Shown here one piece after another: positions 2,382 through 7,884 of a stretch of DNA of 21,770 nucleotides. The notes under the pieces were generated by a model, which was not told where the DNA came from, made no database searches, and saw only the letters and a program-made list of their open reading frames with translations. Within the stretch, counting starts at the first letter, position 1; the number at the start of each line of letters is the position of its first letter. The DNA lies in the UHGV virus genome UHGV-1845973. One strand, written 5' to 3'. This stretch comes from a virus. Both the position numbers and the translations under genes were made by a program.

Positions 2382-2855
2382 ATGAACCTGAAGAGGATGG
2401 TTTTGAAAAAGATAATTTTGATTGTAATTGCGCTTTTAGCCATTTCTGGAATTTACCGAACAACGACGGCAGTTATCGAACACATCAGGTATGTCCGATC
2501 GCTTGAAGACTCAAAATCACAACTGGAAAGCACGAACAACACGCTTTCTACCGCATTACAGTTAAGTGAGAACGCTCGCTCAGCCATGCTGACCGAAAAC
2601 GAAAGAATTAAAGCACTGGAAAAGGAGTACCAGCGCAAAACAGCAGAACTGAATGCCAACCTAATCAAACAACGAGAGGAAAGCCAGAATGAAATCACTC
2701 GCCTTGAAAATGCGTTACGCCGTGCTGGGATTAACGATGTGCGTGTGCCTGATGACGTTATCAGGATGCAGCGGGAACGGGCAAAAGCCATCAACCAGCG
2801 TGCCAGTGAAAATTACCGTAGAAGCCACCAGCAAGCCGCAGGCAAATCTGATTGA
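2382..2855 (+). CDS. Rz-like i-spanin (type II inner-membrane protein with coiled-coil periplasmic domain)
   Basis: N-terminal basic stretch followed by one hydrophobic TM segment (IILIVIALLAISGIY), then a long charged helical region rich in E/R/K/Q/L. A lipoprotein gene is embedded in the +1 frame, which is the spanin hallmark. The alternative start at 2397 is not excluded. Confidence 0.6.
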   Translation: MNLKRMVLKKIILIVIALLAISGIYRTTTAVIEHIRYVRSLEDSKSQLESTNNTLSTALQLSENARSAMLTENERIKALEKEYQRKTAELNANLIKQREESQNEITRLENALRRAGINDVRVPDDVIRMQRERAKAINQRASENYRRSHQQAAGKSD

Positions 2856-3021
2856 TTACTCCCCTTGTTTAGTGCCAGAGGACACGCCAGTGCTGTTAAA
2901 CAAGTATCCGACATACGCTGAACAGTTATTCAGCACGATCGACGAATGCAACCAACGAAACGCACTGAATAACCAAAAAAACAGGGAGATTTGGGAAGGG
3001 AAGGGGGATCAAGGCTCCTGA
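2689..3021 (+). CDS. Rz1-like o-spanin (outer-membrane lipoprotein), starts inside the Rz gene in another frame
   Basis: Signal peptide with lipobox: MKSLALKMRYAVLGLTMCVCLMTLSG|C. Mature part is Pro/Thr/Ser-rich. RBS GAGAGGA 8 nt upstream of the ATG. It begins within Rz and extends 166 nt beyond the Rz stop. Confidence 0.55.
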   Translation: MKSLALKMRYAVLGLTMCVCLMTLSGCSGNGQKPSTSVPVKITVEATSKPQANLIDYSPCLVPEDTPVLLNKYPTYAEQLFSTIDECNQRNALNNQKNREIWEGKGDQGS

Positions 3022-3467
3022 AGCCAGATGTCCTGGCTGTCAGCTTCTTCGAAACCGTGACAGACGTTAAAGTCACTCAAGCGATACTGACGCTGACGGC
3101 CTCTATTTCGCTCATGCCAATGCATGTATCCACCAGCAAATGCCAGCGGACAATCACTATAGTCTATGTAACCAATACCATTCCCCAAACGTGCTTCGCG
3201 CGCACCGGCTTTCCAGGACAGTAGAAAAGAGTCACGATCCGCCAGCATAACAACAAAATCGTCCGGATCTCCGATACAGTGAAGAATACCTGCCTTACAT
3301 AACTGCTTGAGCGCTTTGGGCTGGCTCAGGATGTCTTCTCCGTAATACTGAAAACAATCATCAACAACAGCGGGATAGCCTGCCGGGGGATTCAGGCTGG
3401 TTGGTATAGCTGACGCGATCGCCAGCATTAAGCGATATTGTGTTTTTGATGGGTTAACGTGACTCAT
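3009..3467 (-). CDS. Hypothetical protein (downstream gene of an unknown two-gene module)
   Basis: 152-aa ORF with ATG start, 16 nt after the stop of the upstream ORF on the same strand. Its 3-prime end overlaps the convergent Rz1 end by 13 nt. No motif recognised with confidence. Confidence 0.5.
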   Translation of the reverse strand: MSHVNPSKTQYRLMLAIASAIPTSLNPPAGYPAVVDDCFQYYGEDILSQPKALKQLCKAGILHCIGDPDDFVVMLADRDSFLLSWKAGAREARLGNGIGYIDYSDCPLAFAGGYMHWHERNRGRQRQYRLSDFNVCHGFEEADSQDIWLQEP

Positions 3468-4034: not shown

Positions 4035-5732
4035 GTGAATAAAAACATTCAGCCAGCTCGTGATCGCGAGCGCGAGATTATGAATCGGGCGGCAAGCGTC
4101 ATGGCTATGACCGTCGATCCGACCACCGATGCAGCAGGCAACATGATTGCTGACCAGGCAGTAATGATGGAAAACCTGGATAAAGCAATCCAGAAAGTGC
4201 CTATGTTTGAAGGCGTAAATCCAGAGGTCGCTCGTCAGATCACTGGTGGGTGGGCTATGTCTCTGCATGAGTATAAACGTCAACATGGTCATTACCCGGC
4301 AAGTGACATCCTGGCGAACGCACACATGGCTCTTGAACGCCTAATGACTGAATGTGCCAGTGATACCCACGAAGGCACGGGTAAGGCAATGTTTGAGTCT
4401 GTCGCGCAATCAATGCGTAGCTCTGACGGCGTAATGAAAGTTGCTCAATATGCTGCTCTAATTCTGCCTGCCTCTCTGGGCGCTGCTACCAGTGATGCCT
4501 GTACTTTTGTTCCTTGTGATCGTGACGAGTCAAATATTTATGAACTGGTCAACGTAGCAGGCACAAAATTCGGCACCTTCAAACAAGGTGACGAACTGAA
4601 TATGCAGTCAGCTGGTGTTTATTCTCAAATGAAGCGCCTGTATACCCTTTCCACTAAAGGGGATGGCAGCACCAAAACCTTCCAGTTCGACATCCAAAAT
4701 TTTGAGGGACAATCCTGCCCGCTTCGCGCTGGTTATAGCAAACTGCTGATCAACCGCAAACCGTCCAAAGTTGACGACGGCGATGGCAACCTTTATTTCA
4801 ATGCTAAAGACAGCAAAGGTAAAGCTTTCTCAGCGACTGCCAAAGTCGCCTATGACACTGGTGTCATTGACATTACATTTACCCAGGCTCCGCCAGAAGG
4901 TACTGAAATTGCTGTTCAGGTCGAAATTAACATCGAGCGCAATCCAAGCCTGATTCCTGTGATCAACCAGGCTATGCGTAAGTACGAAGTTCGTCCGTCC
5001 CAGTACGTAATTGCTTCCGAACACACGGTAATGTCCGCATCCGATTTAAGCCGTGAGCACGGCCTTGAATTAGCGGCACTTCAGTTCTCCGCGATGCGTA
5101 ACTGGATCTCCCATGAAACCGACATCATGCGTCTGCGCACCCTGGTATTCCATACCGTTTATGGTCGTGAATTTGATGTGGCTCTGCCGGAAGCTCAAAA
5201 CTATGAGTCCTGGGTCGGCCTCCTGCGTCACGTAGTAAACGCTCTGTCTCAAGAAATGGCAAATCGTACCCTGACAACGGGTATTCGTGGCGGCTTTGCT
5301 GGTGGTGACGCCGCGAACTTCCTGCGCTCTCTGCCTCCACAGCACTTCCAGATCGCACCAGGTTACGTTCAGTCGCCGTATGTACAGTACATCGGCACCC
5401 TGTTTGGCACGATTCGTATTTACGAAGTGCCGCAACCTGTCTGTGAGCAATTCCAGGCACAGGGATATGACTTCGGGCTGGATGACATCTTCTTCTATGG
5501 GCGTGGCGAAGGCATCGGTAAAGCCGGTCTGATTGCTGGTGATGCAGTCCCAGCAATCCCTTACGTGCACGAAACCAATCCGTCTCTCGTTAACCGTACC
5601 ACTCTCTGGGGCAGTGCCATCAACGAAGTACATCCTCGCAACGGTGAAAACTACTTCACCCGCCTGCGTCTGACTCGCGCCAAAGAAGGTGCTATCGACA
5701 TGCTGACAGGCAAGGTTAACGAAAAAAAGTGA
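4035..5732 (+). CDS. Putative major capsid protein precursor (large head protein)
   Basis: 565-aa ORF with GTG start, the first gene of the long + strand structural operon, immediately upstream of an Ig-like protein gene and the sheath gene. The functional call rests on position and size only. Confidence 0.55.
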   Translation: MNKNIQPARDREREIMNRAASVMAMTVDPTTDAAGNMIADQAVMMENLDKAIQKVPMFEGVNPEVARQITGGWAMSLHEYKRQHGHYPASDILANAHMALERLMTECASDTHEGTGKAMFESVAQSMRSSDGVMKVAQYAALILPASLGAATSDACTFVPCDRDESNIYELVNVAGTKFGTFKQGDELNMQSAGVYSQMKRLYTLSTKGDGSTKTFQFDIQNFEGQSCPLRAGYSKLLINRKPSKVDDGDGNLYFNAKDSKGKAFSATAKVAYDTGVIDITFTQAPPEGTEIAVQVEINIERNPSLIPVINQAMRKYEVRPSQYVIASEHTVMSASDLSREHGLELAALQFSAMRNWISHETDIMRLRTLVFHTVYGREFDVALPEAQNYESWVGLLRHVVNALSQEMANRTLTTGIRGGFAGGDAANFLRSLPPQHFQIAPGYVQSPYVQYIGTLFGTIRIYEVPQPVCEQFQAQGYDFGLDDIFFYGRGEGIGKAGLIAGDAVPAIPYVHETNPSLVNRTTLWGSAINEVHPRNGENYFTRLRLTRAKEGAIDMLTGKVNEKK

Positions 5733-5836
5733 TGGTGGCGAACGTGTCGGTATCACCAACGTCACTTGACGTAGATGAAGGTGAAACTATCGCCGCGAAC
5801 ACTTCAAAGGCACAGAAAAAAACAAAGCAGAAGTAA
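5732..5836 (+). CDS. Small -1 frame ORF (34 aa) overlapping the capsid stop; possible frameshift extension or coupled small gene
   Basis: ATG overlaps the capsid TGA (TGATG). Encodes MVANVSVSPTSLDVDEGETIAANTSKAQKKTKQK; the VSVSPTSLDVDEGETIA part looks like the first beta-strands of a Big_2 domain. An A_AAA_AAG heptamer sits directly before the capsid stop. Confidence 0.3.
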   Translation: MVANVSVSPTSLDVDEGETIAANTSKAQKKTKQK

Positions 5837-5845
5837 GGCAAAAAC

Positions 5846-5866
5846 ACGCCCCTGATTAAGGGGCGT
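5846..5866 (+). terminator. GC-rich hairpin (8-bp stem ACGCCCCT/AGGGGCGT, 5-nt loop) without a U-tract
   Basis: Perfect inverted repeat read directly from the sequence. It is followed immediately by RBS AGGAG and the ATG at 5880, so it is more likely an attenuator or RNA-stability element than a full terminator. Confidence 0.3.
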
Positions 5867-5879
5867 TCAGGAGAAAAGA

Positions 5880-6158
5880 ATGGCAAACATTCAAGTAACT
5901 ATCACGCCATCTGACGCAACAGACAAATCTTTCACTGTTGAGTCAGATCACCCTGAAATTGTCCGGGTTGATGGCACTACATGTACCGCTCTTAAGGCCG
6001 GGCAGGCAGTGCTGACAATCAAAACAAATGACGGCAATAAAACCGCACAGTGCACAGTCACTGTTAGGGAGGCACATAAAAGCGTAAGCACCGTCAGTGT
6101 TGAACCAACTACGAAAGAAGTAACCGTAGGCGATAACTTCACGGTAAGCCAATCCTGA
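5880..6158 (+). CDS. Bacterial Ig-like (Big_2-type) domain protein, candidate capsid decoration protein
   Basis: ITPSDATDKSFTVESDHPEIVRVDGTTCTALKAGQAVLTIKTNDGNKTAQCTVTV matches the Big_2 core pattern. RBS AGGAG 6 nt upstream of the ATG. Confidence 0.65.
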   Translation: MANIQVTITPSDATDKSFTVESDHPEIVRVDGTTCTALKAGQAVLTIKTNDGNKTAQCTVTVREAHKSVSTVSVEPTTKEVTVGDNFTVSQS

Positions 6159-6162
6159 TCAG

Positions 6163-6189
6163 AGGCTGCCCATTAACCGTGGGTAGCCT
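6163..6189 (+). terminator. Hairpin (10-bp stem with one G-U pair, 7-nt loop) followed by a T/C-rich stretch
   Basis: AGGCTGCCCA ttaaccg TGGGTAGCCT followed by tgcctcgttctctcgcttt. Lies between the Ig-like gene and the sheath gene. Confidence 0.3.
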
Positions 6190-6225
6190 TGCCTCGTTCT
6201 CTCGCTTTAGAGGATAAGAACCAGC

Positions 6226-7884
6226 ATGAATAAGATTAGTTTTTCGGTAGGGCAGGCAGCTGGCGTTGCTGTAATGTCAGTAAATGCTGACGCTACCCTC
6301 ACCAATACCAGCGGTGGCGCATCCGTCTTTGCTGGGCTTGTAATATCGCGTCGTGGCGCACCGGGTAAGGTACTGAAAGTTGACGATACGACTTATCAAA
6401 GCGTATTAGGTTCACCGATTCACCCTCGCCAGGGCGCGGCATTTGAACCATATCGCCACGTGGAGCGTGCAGTAAAAGGCGGCTCTGGATATGTCGTTCG
6501 AGTTTGCGCTAAAGACATGAAGGTGCCGGGTATTTCTGTTTCCGTTGTGGGCAAAGCAAAAGCGGCAAAGGCGAGCAAAGAACTTTCCGTTGAACCTACT
6601 GAAACCACAGTAAATCCAGGTGACACATTAAGCGTTGGTGTTGCTTCAACTGCAACGACTCAATCAGTGACCTTCACACCCAAAGAGACGCCCCAGATTA
6701 AAGGTGAAGAGAAGGCATTATTCTTCATCAAAGATGGTGATGCATCTCAAAATCGCACGTTATCACTAACTCGCGATGATGAAGAAAGCGAACTCTTTAC
6801 GCTGACGCTGAAAGAAAAACAAACCGATGGGTCCATTGAGGTGCTGGAAAGCCACCAAGTGTCTTTCAATCCAGAAGGCACCAACGACATGGGCCAACCA
6901 GCATGGATTCCGACACTGCTTGAAAGCCAGTCCACTCGCATTGGTGCCGTACTGGCAGATAATGCAGAAGCATCCGCTGCTCAACTCATTTTTGAGGATG
7001 TAGCTTTTGAAGGTGGTACTGATGGAAATCTGTCCGAAATTAACGCTGCAGACTATCTGGAAGCATTAAAGGTTCTCGAAGCTTCAGAGGTTAATTACAC
7101 CGCATTGCTGTCACTGGGTTGTTATGACGCATCCGCCTTAGCCGCAATCAAAAAGCTGGCTGAAGATGTTCGCGTAGACATGTTCTATGACCTGAAGGGC
7201 AACCAGACACCTGAAAACGCTATTTCAGAAGCGAAAAGCCATAGTTTTGGCGGCTCACATCAACCAAGCCGTTACTACTTCCCGCTCTCCTGCCGAGATA
7301 CCTTCACTGGGATGAATGTCGTCTATGGCATTAGTTGCGACGCATTCGTAGCAAAAGCAAAAGGGGTAGCGCTGGTACCGGATGTTGGTGGTTGGCATTA
7401 CGCACCGGCAGGTATATCACGCGCGATTATTGATCGACAGAACATTGCCCGAATTCCAAATATCGGTGCAGTTGATCGTGAAGCGTTCGTTCTTGCGCGC
7501 ATTAATCCGGTTTCAGTTGCTGCTGATGGGTCCGTTTACATTGACGACTCTTTAACAACTTACAGCAAAAACAACTATCTGCGATTCCAGCATGTGTCTT
7601 CCTTGATGAACGCCATCGCCAGAGATTTCTATGAAGTAGCTCAGGCGATTAAGCACGAACCGGATGGCATTACCAAAGAAACGCTAATGAAAGCAATGAC
7701 TGAATTGCTTGACCGTTACGTTGCAGCCGGTGCGCTGGTTACTCCACGTGACAAGTCCCAGGGTGAAGATCCATACGTTGTTCAGGTTGTCCAAAAGGAC
7801 ATCGATCTGTGGGAAGTGTCCTGGTCTGTTTGTCCGACCGGTACAGCTCGCCGAATCGTCGGTAAGCCAATTCTGATGCGCTGA
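6226..7884 (+). CDS. Tail sheath protein (contractile tail) with an internal Ig-like segment
   Basis: 552 aa. The C-terminal region GWHYAPAGISRAIIDRQ...ARINPVSVAADGSVYIDDSLTTY...LRFQHVSSLMNAI follows the conserved sheath C-terminal pattern (SPAG..RG / INP / V..GD.T / RINVRRL in T4 gp18-type sheaths). An N-proximal segment ELSVEPTETTVNPGDTLSVGV is Big_2-like. Confidence 0.8.
   Translation: MNKISFSVGQAAGVAVMSVNADATLTNTSGGASVFAGLVISRRGAPGKVLKVDDTTYQSVLGSPIHPRQGAAFEPYRHVERAVKGGSGYVVRVCAKDMKVPGISVSVVGKAKAAKASKELSVEPTETTVNPGDTLSVGVASTATTQSVTFTPKETPQIKGEEKALFFIKDGDASQNRTLSLTRDDEESELFTLTLKEKQTDGSIEVLESHQVSFNPEGTNDMGQPAWIPTLLESQSTRIGAVLADNAEASAAQLIFEDVAFEGGTDGNLSEINAADYLEALKVLEASEVNYTALLSLGCYDASALAAIKKLAEDVRVDMFYDLKGNQTPENAISEAKSHSFGGSHQPSRYYFPLSCRDTFTGMNVVYGISCDAFVAKAKGVALVPDVGGWHYAPAGISRAIIDRQNIARIPNIGAVDREAFVLARINPVSVAADGSVYIDDSLTTYSKNNYLRFQHVSSLMNAIARDFYEVAQAIKHEPDGITKETLMKAMTELLDRYVAAGALVTPRDKSQGEDPYVVQVVQKDIDLWEVSWSVCPTGTARRIVGKPILMR

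Follow-up and report, generated by a model that had tools for sequence, protein, structure and literature searches.

Introduction

Phage structural proteins reportedly gain C-terminal immunoglobulin-like (Ig-like) domains by programmed ribosomal frameshifting, and frameshifted capsid proteins are also found in Lactobacillus phage A2 (gp5A/5B), Listeria phage PSA and phages T7 and T3 (10A/10B). In the chaperone-usher pili (PapD/FimC; Yersinia F1), an incomplete Ig-like subunit is completed by a β-strand that is donated to it. Here we describe a locus that may have features of both systems. It lies at the 3' end of the major capsid protein gene in a 21,770-nucleotide (nt) stretch of the virus genome UHGV-1845973 (hereafter the window), which is closely related to Escherichia phage D6, a P1-like plasmid prophage. 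At the capsid stop codon, the slippery heptamer A_AAA_AAG leads into a −1 frame whose predicted product resembles the first strands of a Big_2 Ig-like domain, and the following gene, orf49 in D6, encodes the rest of such a domain. We propose, with a probability of about one half, that the frameshifted capsid tail completes this split Ig domain.

Among the −1 ribosomal sites of E. coli, the heptamer A_AAA_AAG is reportedly the one most prone to slippage, and a stimulatory element is not strictly needed for it in this host. Relatives of the window were gathered from plasmids, phage records, species genomes, IMG/VR, metagenomes and Logan assemblies (> 100 related loci), and the comparisons below are based on them.

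Results

The capsid gene ends on a slippery heptamer with an open −1 frame

The capsid open reading frame (ORF) ends AAC GAA AAA AAG TGA, and its zero-frame product of 565 amino acids (aa) has the C-terminus ...GKVNEKK. Read in the −1 frame from G5729, the sequence encodes VMVANVSVSPTSLDVDEGETIAANTSKAQKKTKQK before a TAA stop at 5834..5836. The predicted trans-frame junction is ...VNEKK-VMVANVSVSPTSLDVDEGE, within the predicted trans-frame sequence ...LTGKVNEKKVMVANVSVSPTSLDVDEGETIAANTSK. The −1 frame is blocked by a TAA at 5717..5719, just 5' of the heptamer; therefore, the heptamer is its only entry point. A TGATG overlap is present at the capsid stop, and an AAGG lies at 5712..5715, 7 nt 5' of the heptamer. 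An earlier note on this DNA, made from the letters alone, had placed the heptamer, the stop, the −1 ORF, the overlap and the AAGG at these positions, and our reading of the sequence agrees with it throughout. A second run of seven A (5814..5820) is found inside the Lys-rich end of the extension; it is six A long in the IMG/VR locus L028, giving the tail ...KAQKKQSRSKAKTRP*, which is either a length polymorphism or a homopolymer assembly error.

By itself, the heptamer is unremarkable, as the window contains 12 copies of AAAAAAG against an expected 8.4 ± 2.9. Among these copies, the one at 5723 alone combines the correct register with a position at the 3' end of a long ORF and a −1 frame that stays open beyond it. 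The significance of the site comes from its conservation across relatives rather than from the rarity of the heptamer.

Two parts of a Big_2 domain in neighbouring ORFs

The earlier note had likened the extension to the first β-strands of a Big_2 domain, and this likeness is recovered when the extension is joined to the following gene. The extension alone gave no match to the Big_2 profile, and orf49 alone matched Pfam Big_2 (PF02368) with 34.1–35.7 bits (cut-off 22.8) at positions 22–79 only of the 79 in the profile. Spliced to the orf49 core, the extension carries the match to positions 2–79 and the score rises from 35.7 to 42.8 bits (+7). Since the spliced match extends to 2–79, the extension represents the first strands of the domain that is continued by orf49; neither one as a separate polypeptide spans the whole profile. 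The same splice gave positions 2–79 in the distant lineage L103, where the score rose from 23.4 to 28.4 bits (+5), and in JBIWA008 (28.5 bits, splice score only). In these coordinates, residues 3–23 of the extension align with strands A and A' and the first part of B (profile 2–21) and its last 12 residues are Lys-rich, while residues 1–62 of orf49 form a Big_2 core without strands A and A'.

The AlphaFold2 model of orf49 has a mean predicted local distance difference test (pLDDT) score of 89 and contains five strands only, within residues 18–62. The best Foldseek matches are a Big_2 structure (7quz; root mean square deviation 1.0 Å over 58 columns) and the C-terminal Ig domain of lambda gpV (2l04), and the C-terminal 30 residues of orf49 lie outside the match. 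Giant tandem Big_2 proteins dominate the hits of an orf49 profile against protein representatives; compared with these, orf49 is one repeat period taken ~20 residues out of phase.

The earlier note had missed that the next gene holds the rest of the Ig domain, and also that further copies of the strand motif are present in the orf49 C-terminus and in the tail sheath protein. The orf49 tail, which follows the linker REAHKS from about residue 69 (hmmsearch match at nt 6084..6152; ...KSVSTVSVEPTTKEVTVGDNFTVSQS), is a second copy of Big_2 positions 2–21, and splicing it to the core also yields a match to 2–79. Within the family, whose Ig ORFs are down to 43–54% identical across lineages, the VGDxFxV of the orf49 tail belongs to the invariant columns. 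When a hidden Markov model (HMM) of the tail was run against the six-frame translation of the window, the best non-self match was an insert in the sheath protein (13.5 bits, independent E-value 0.0016; 19.7 bits for the insert alone), and no further donor copy was found by this search anywhere else in the window. The insert, ~30 aa long, is a feature of the split-Ig clade, whose inserts score 13.5–22 bits against the tail HMM; P0038 has none, and the JBIWA008- and L110-type sheaths have a shortened one. In the sheath alignment, it is absent from the Pantoea-, Xenorhabdus-, Serratia- and P1-type proteins. In the AlphaFold2 model of the sheath (64-sequence alignment, pLDDT 84), the insert is the only internal unstructured stretch of low confidence (pLDDT 46–67), and it appears as a disordered loop at the surface between two confident strands.

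Accordingly, a gene for a strand-deficient Ig core co-occurs with three donor-like peptides, in the capsid extension, the orf49 tail and the sheath loop; the donor-motif peptides are VMVANVSVSPTSLDVDEGETIAA, VSTVSVEPTTKEVTVGDNFTV and ELSVEPTETTVNPGDTLSVGV. In the L103 lineage, the region that separates the capsid gene from the sheath gene contains two Ig ORFs, one of 68 aa consisting of a core with no tail (2738..2944) and one of 91 aa consisting of a core with a tail (3001..3276). These could be a chain-terminating and a chain-extending subunit, respectively.

A proposed strand donation in trans

We propose that some ribosomes slip back by one base on A_AAA_AAG and read 35 more codons, which would yield a minor capsid isoform, gp23-ext. 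Its extension would be the N-terminal piece that is detached from the Ig domain (A, A' and the first part of B) and would complete the orf49 core in trans by β-strand (donor-strand) complementation, anchoring orf49 on the minority of capsid subunits that are produced by frameshifting. The orf49 tail and the sheath loop may likewise hold this core, or link copies of it into chains, on the phage tail, and the rate of frameshifting would set the occupancy of the Ig module on the head. Judged from profiles and models, complementation of the split domain in trans has close to an even chance of being correct. The broader idea, in which the split Ig domain is a modular, non-covalent attachment system that accepts the capsid donor, the sheath loop or other orf49 tails, with the frameshift rate governing head decoration, is offered somewhat more tentatively.

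Several observations weigh against this proposal. The extensions of the D6 clade are only weakly similar to the tail and sheath donors and score 0.8–4.2 bits against the tail HMM, while those of JBIWA008, L107, L109 and L110 score 11–14 bits, and there is an overlap of ~5 residues between the donors and the N-terminal end of the core. The proposal does not explain why the extension ends in a Lys-rich stretch, and the shortened sheath inserts of the JBIWA008- and L110-type lineages fit poorly. The ratio of nonsynonymous to synonymous polymorphism (pN/pS) of the −1 frame, ~0.5–0.6, indicates moderate constraint only. Finally, no conserved stimulatory hairpin, pseudoknot or Shine-Dalgarno (SD) element was found across lineages.

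The frameshift might be real and the extension might act otherwise, as a surface tag or as a basic tail that tunes assembly or stability, the Big_2 likeness being the trace of a once-fused domain. All the evidence for recoding given below applies equally to such a role. The weak similarity of the D6 extension to the other donor motifs, the Lys/Arg-rich end in several lineages and the confidence with which AlphaFold2 models the orf49 core without strand A are all in keeping with it. However, the part that is common to the ten lineages is the strand-like one, whereas JBIWA008, L103 and L110 have no basic tail. In every lineage tested, the two pieces cover exactly complementary parts of the profile (2–21 versus 22–79), and the extension is found together with the sheath insert and an Ig ORF that is strand-deficient. 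We therefore consider a role other than strand donation rather unlikely, although it is the most serious of the alternatives.

Conservation of the heptamer and coding signature of the −1 frame

Programmed −1 frameshifting at the capsid stop had been suggested in the earlier note, and comparison with orthologues strongly supports it. All 34 distinct sequences of the D6 clade (~60 loci) keep GAAAAAAAG, followed directly by TGA, TAA or TAG. The in-frame heptamer is also present in the distant lineages L006/JBIWA008, L103, L106, L107, L108, L109 and L110 and in a Serratia clade described below. In the distant lineages, the zero-frame stop is mostly two codons 3' of the heptamer. The capsids of these relatives have diverged, with 80% identity to the window in L006/JBIWA008 and 69% in L103 (67–91% where measured, in L003, L011, L006 and L103), and the C-terminal tail flanking the heptamer is hypervariable in both length and sequence. 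The codon preceding AAA AAG is GAA, GGA or GCA (E, G or A), with a constant A at its third position, and AAA AAG is invariant. Because the residue varies while the third-position A, the first base of the heptamer, is kept, selection appears to act on the nucleotide and not on the residue. Homologues that lack the heptamer or the −1 ORF were looked for and were not seen among the split-Ig relatives. In the capsids of the Ig-less relatives (Pantoea/Acinetobacter type, L055–L059, Xenorhabdus, L098 and P1), A_AAA_AAG was not found. The Xenorhabdus-type capsids have an in-frame A_AAA_AAC near the C-terminus (L013:5252 and 5267; L060:4782) with a −1 continuation of 1–2 codons and no Ig gene; these heptamers are probably a by-product of Lys/Asn-rich tails.

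The same pattern bears on whether the shift would take place in translation or in transcription. RNA polymerase could add one A to the run of seven (5722..5728), giving an mRNA with eight A and the product ...EKK-VMVAN... Slippage on runs of A or T is reportedly known in bacteria and in insertion sequence (IS) elements, Thermus dnaX being an example, and the length variant of the second run in L028 would fit a tendency to slip. Efficient transcriptional slippage, however, usually needs at least nine A or T, and in all lineages it is the exact A_AAA_AAG register that is conserved, and never a longer run. Given so short a run, and conservation of the X_XXY_YYZ register itself, we regard this explanation as improbable.

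The −1 ORF is open for 23–45 codons in 10 of 10 lineages. Its pN/pS is 0.35–0.55 in the D6 clade and 0.64 over the ten lineages, in comparison with 1.07 and 1.18 for the other two frames, and its conservation is lowest at the third codon position (0.57 versus 0.75 and 0.79). The extension is short, and the earlier note had partly for this reason considered a decayed or partial recoding site; a coding signature kept across ten lineages does not agree with decay. It also speaks against the view that nothing is recoded here, the heptamer being an inherited coding accident of E/G/A-K-K and the −1 ORF an untranslated relic of a broken capsid-Ig fusion. Such a relic would account for a heptamer that is no rarer than chance in the window and for the lack of a stimulatory element, and shared ancestry does inflate the apparent conservation. 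It would not account for a frame that stays open over 23–45 codons, for third-position wobble and a pN/pS below 1 in that frame only, for a Big_2 strand pattern that is kept despite the divergence of the Ig ORFs, or for a first heptamer base that is kept while the encoded residue changes, and we consider it very improbable.

That orf50, as the −1 ORF is called in D6, is an independent small gene expressed by initiation or by termination-reinitiation at TGATG, a coupling that the earlier note had also raised, is hardly credible, because the ATG at 5732, which overlaps the TGA and is the start of a listed coding sequence in the D6 record, is confined to the D6 subclade (codon 2 is GCA in the marmotae, fergusonii and Shigella types), no ATG, GTG or TTG occurs anywhere in the −1 ORFs of L006 and L106 or near the 5' end of those of L107–L110, and no SD sequence lies at a functional distance. 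Continuous reading from the capsid gene into orf49 was considered and rejected, since the phase of orf49 relative to the capsid differs among loci and stops intervene. Taken together, comparative sequence evidence makes functional −1 recoding at the capsid stop highly probable.

Candidate stimulators of frameshifting

The AAGG upstream of the heptamer had been pointed out as an SD-like element. The marmotae and fergusonii types lack it (GGGCAAATC and GGGCAGATC), and its position is unconserved elsewhere, which argues against a role as a stimulator. The earlier failure to find a convincing downstream hairpin is upheld by our searches. RNAalifold detected no conserved structure across lineages (−6.3 and −1.5 kcal/mol for alignments of eight and six lineages, with positive, that is, unfavourable, covariation terms), and an Rfam search gave no match to a frameshift element, only noise below the threshold. 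A candidate stem-loop, with a CACC/GGUG helix inside it, is present in the D6 clade and begins 5 nt 3' of the heptamer; both of its arms encode conserved residues. Its RNAfold z-score is about −2.5 to −3.4 (90 nt) in three of five D6-clade sequences, which is modest.

Since A_AAA_AAG is intrinsically the most shift-prone heptamer in E. coli, a shift of low percentage is plausible without a stimulator. The adjacent zero-frame stop may contribute to shifting, and the efficiency would then rest on the heptamer and the nearby stop.

An unsplit relative and the history of the module

The Serratia clade (L014, L061, L062, L068, L095), comprising Serratia sp. PL17 and four viral or metagenomic contigs, has capsids that are 53–55% identical. 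Here the zero frame runs on past GAA AAA AAG through a linker into a complete Big_2 domain (59.8 bits, positions 2–79), and a hairpin and the sheath gene come next. The orthologue comparison that the earlier note had proposed thus yields, besides a conserved heptamer and −1 ORF, one clade with a full in-frame Ig domain. The Serratia-clade heptamers (L014:5156; L061, L062, L068, L095:4656) lead into a −1 frame that stops after 1–5 codons; consequently, a −1 slip in these types would give a shorter capsid protein that lacks the Ig domain, a geometry like that of dnaX. The in-frame domain shows that the capsid C-terminus tolerates an Ig domain and that the D6 extension and the first part of a capsid-borne domain are homologous.

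In the capsid tree, the types with the split arrangement (L103, JBIWA008 and D6) form one monophyletic group, whose sister clade, the Pantoea type, is without the module. Three states therefore exist among related phages, in which the domain is fused in frame (Serratia), split with a frameshifted plug (D6) or absent (P1 and Pantoea). They provide a natural series for the gain, the splitting and the head/tail redeployment of decoration domains.

Genomic context and other features of the locus

The 1-kb stretch 5300..6300 is 99.3% identical to phage D6 and 100% identical to an E. coli plasmid, and at least 80% of this 1-kb query is covered in 121 plasmid records. Plasmids of the D6 type are common among E. 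coli, Salmonella and Shigella from clinical and livestock sources. The gene order in D6 is orf51 (capsid), orf50 (34 aa, hypothetical), orf49 ('structural protein with Ig domain') and tail sheath, and the capsid is 47% identical to P1 gp23 across the C-terminal 200 aa. The D6 record lists the −1 ORF as 'orf50, hypothetical protein' starting at the ATG at 5732, with the frameshift unmarked, and in related plasmids this site is left without a gene in the RefSeq annotation. The features of the locus are collected in Table 1.

Table 1 Features of the capsid–orf49–sheath region (window coordinates).
Feature	Coordinates	Strand	Basis
Major capsid protein gene (P1 gp23 homologue, D6 orf51)	4035..5732	+	ORF list; D6 annotation 'major capsid protein, similar to P1 gene 23'
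Slippery heptamer A_AAA_AAG, X_XXY_YYZ register; proposed −1 ribosomal frameshift site	5723..5729	+	Sequence, conservation
−1 frame extension (orf50 in D6), 35 codons and TAA	5729..5836	+	Big_2 profile match when spliced to orf49; pN/pS
Zero-frame stop directly 3' of the heptamer	5730..5732	+	TGA here; TAA/TAG in relatives
Candidate stimulatory stem-loop, GUGGCGA (5735..5741) with UCGCCGC (5790..5796)	5735..5796	+	RNAfold, D6 clade only, weak
G+C-rich hairpin, 3' of capsid/extension and 5' of the orf49 ribosome-binding site	5846..5866	+	Compensatory changes in relatives
orf49 ribosome-binding site GGAG, 6 nt before ATG 5880	5870..5873	+	Sequence; GGAG equivalents in all lineages
orf49, 92-aa Ig-like protein	5880..6158	+	Pfam, AlphaFold2, Foldseek
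Second G+C-rich hairpin, after orf49 and before the sheath gene	6164..6188	+	Sequence; equivalents in relatives
Tail sheath gene (P1 gp22 homologue)	6226..7884	+	ORF list, D6 annotation
Sheath insert, residues ~109–142, GKAKAAKASKELSVEPTETTVNPGDTLSVGVAST; third Big_2 strand A-B 'donor' copy after a Lys/Ala-rich linker	6550..6651	+	Alignment, HMM, AlphaFold2

The hairpin that precedes the orf49 ribosome-binding site is kept also in the Ig-less Pantoea type and P1 and in the Serratia types. We considered it as a canonical terminator for the plus strand and rejected this, as its T-run is on the minus strand only and there is no U-tract on the plus strand; it looks like an attenuator or an RNA-stability element.

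Three further observations were made among the relatives. Two D6-like contigs (L018:1..401 and L019:1..401) carry an IS605-type OrfB/TnpB gene (Pfam Cas12f1-like_TNB) just 5' of the small pre-capsid genes. In NZ_CP031917.1 (H107), the orf49 homologue matches as two pieces and may be frameshifted. In NZ_MK356557.1 (L008), the whole region is annotated as short hypothetical ORFs only, owing either to degradation of the prophage or to low assembly quality.

Discussion

The site described here is a deeply conserved −1 site, apparently without a conserved stimulator, which was missed by annotation in a tractable family of E. coli phage-plasmids. If the proposed pairing of the capsid extension with the orf49 core is true, it would be the first donor-strand-type assembly in a virus and a case in which recoding delivers only the plug of a domain. 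We know of no donor-strand-type assembly described before in a virus. A literature search, which did not include the D6 genome paper (Gilcrease and Casjens 2018), found no account of a frameshift in D6-like capsids or of donor-strand decoration of a phage. Complementation in trans would also represent a new principle of attachment to virions, and the peptide and domain could serve as a pair for phage display or for the decoration of nanoparticles.

Within its own family, the nearest well-known relative, P1, appears to be without a decoration protein (PMC9024508), and we found neither an Ig gene nor the heptamer in P1. As a recoding site, the D6-like locus resembles E. coli dnaX (tau/gamma), which has the identical heptamer A_AAA_AAG, decoding by the single E. 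coli tRNA-Lys, a stop close by, and two products made from one gene in a set ratio, the last of these being a prediction here. It is unlike dnaX in that the two stimulators of dnaX, an SD-like element 5' of the heptamer and a strong hairpin 3' of it, are not conserved at the D6-like site, and in that the frameshift product of the D6-like capsid is the longer one.

The resemblance to pili is mechanistic. As in the chaperone-usher systems, the orf49 core has an Ig-like fold without an edge strand, candidate donors lie elsewhere, and chaining would be possible if assembly does occur in trans; the donor-less 68-aa ORF of L103 would then act as a chain end. Pilins, however, are without the C-terminal G strand and donate an N-terminal extension, whereas orf49 is without the N-terminal A and A' strands and its donors are C-terminal or internal. 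No chaperone or usher gene was found between the capsid and sheath genes, so the locus is not a member of the chaperone-usher family. A second parallel is provided by SpyTag/SpyCatcher (CnaB2) and by isopeptag/pilin-C, in which an Ig-like domain that is cut near a terminal strand can be reconstituted from a peptide and the remainder. These pairs are artificial and locked by an isopeptide bond, while the D6 type shows no sign of covalent chemistry.

In its place on the virion, the module would be comparable to T4 Hoc, the C-terminal domain of lambda gpV and T5 pb10, which are small, non-essential, surface-exposed Ig-like modules on the head or tail, and the lambda gpV domain (2l04) is also a structural match to the orf49 core. 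Those modules are fused in cis or bound through a dedicated capsid-binding domain, unlike the arrangement proposed here. Another parallel is formed by the frameshifted Ig capsids of other phages, with which the D6 type shares a C-terminal capsid extension, a Big_2-type sequence and, as we propose, the decoration of a minority isoform. Those capsids add a whole domain in cis, whereas the D6 type adds ~20 residues (profile 2–21) and encodes the remaining 58 positions in a separate gene with its own ribosome-binding site. In summary, the addition of an Ig domain to a phage structural protein by frameshifting is known; what appears to be new in the D6-like phages is that only the first strands are added, that the rest of the domain is a separate protein, and that more copies of the donor are carried by orf49 and the sheath.

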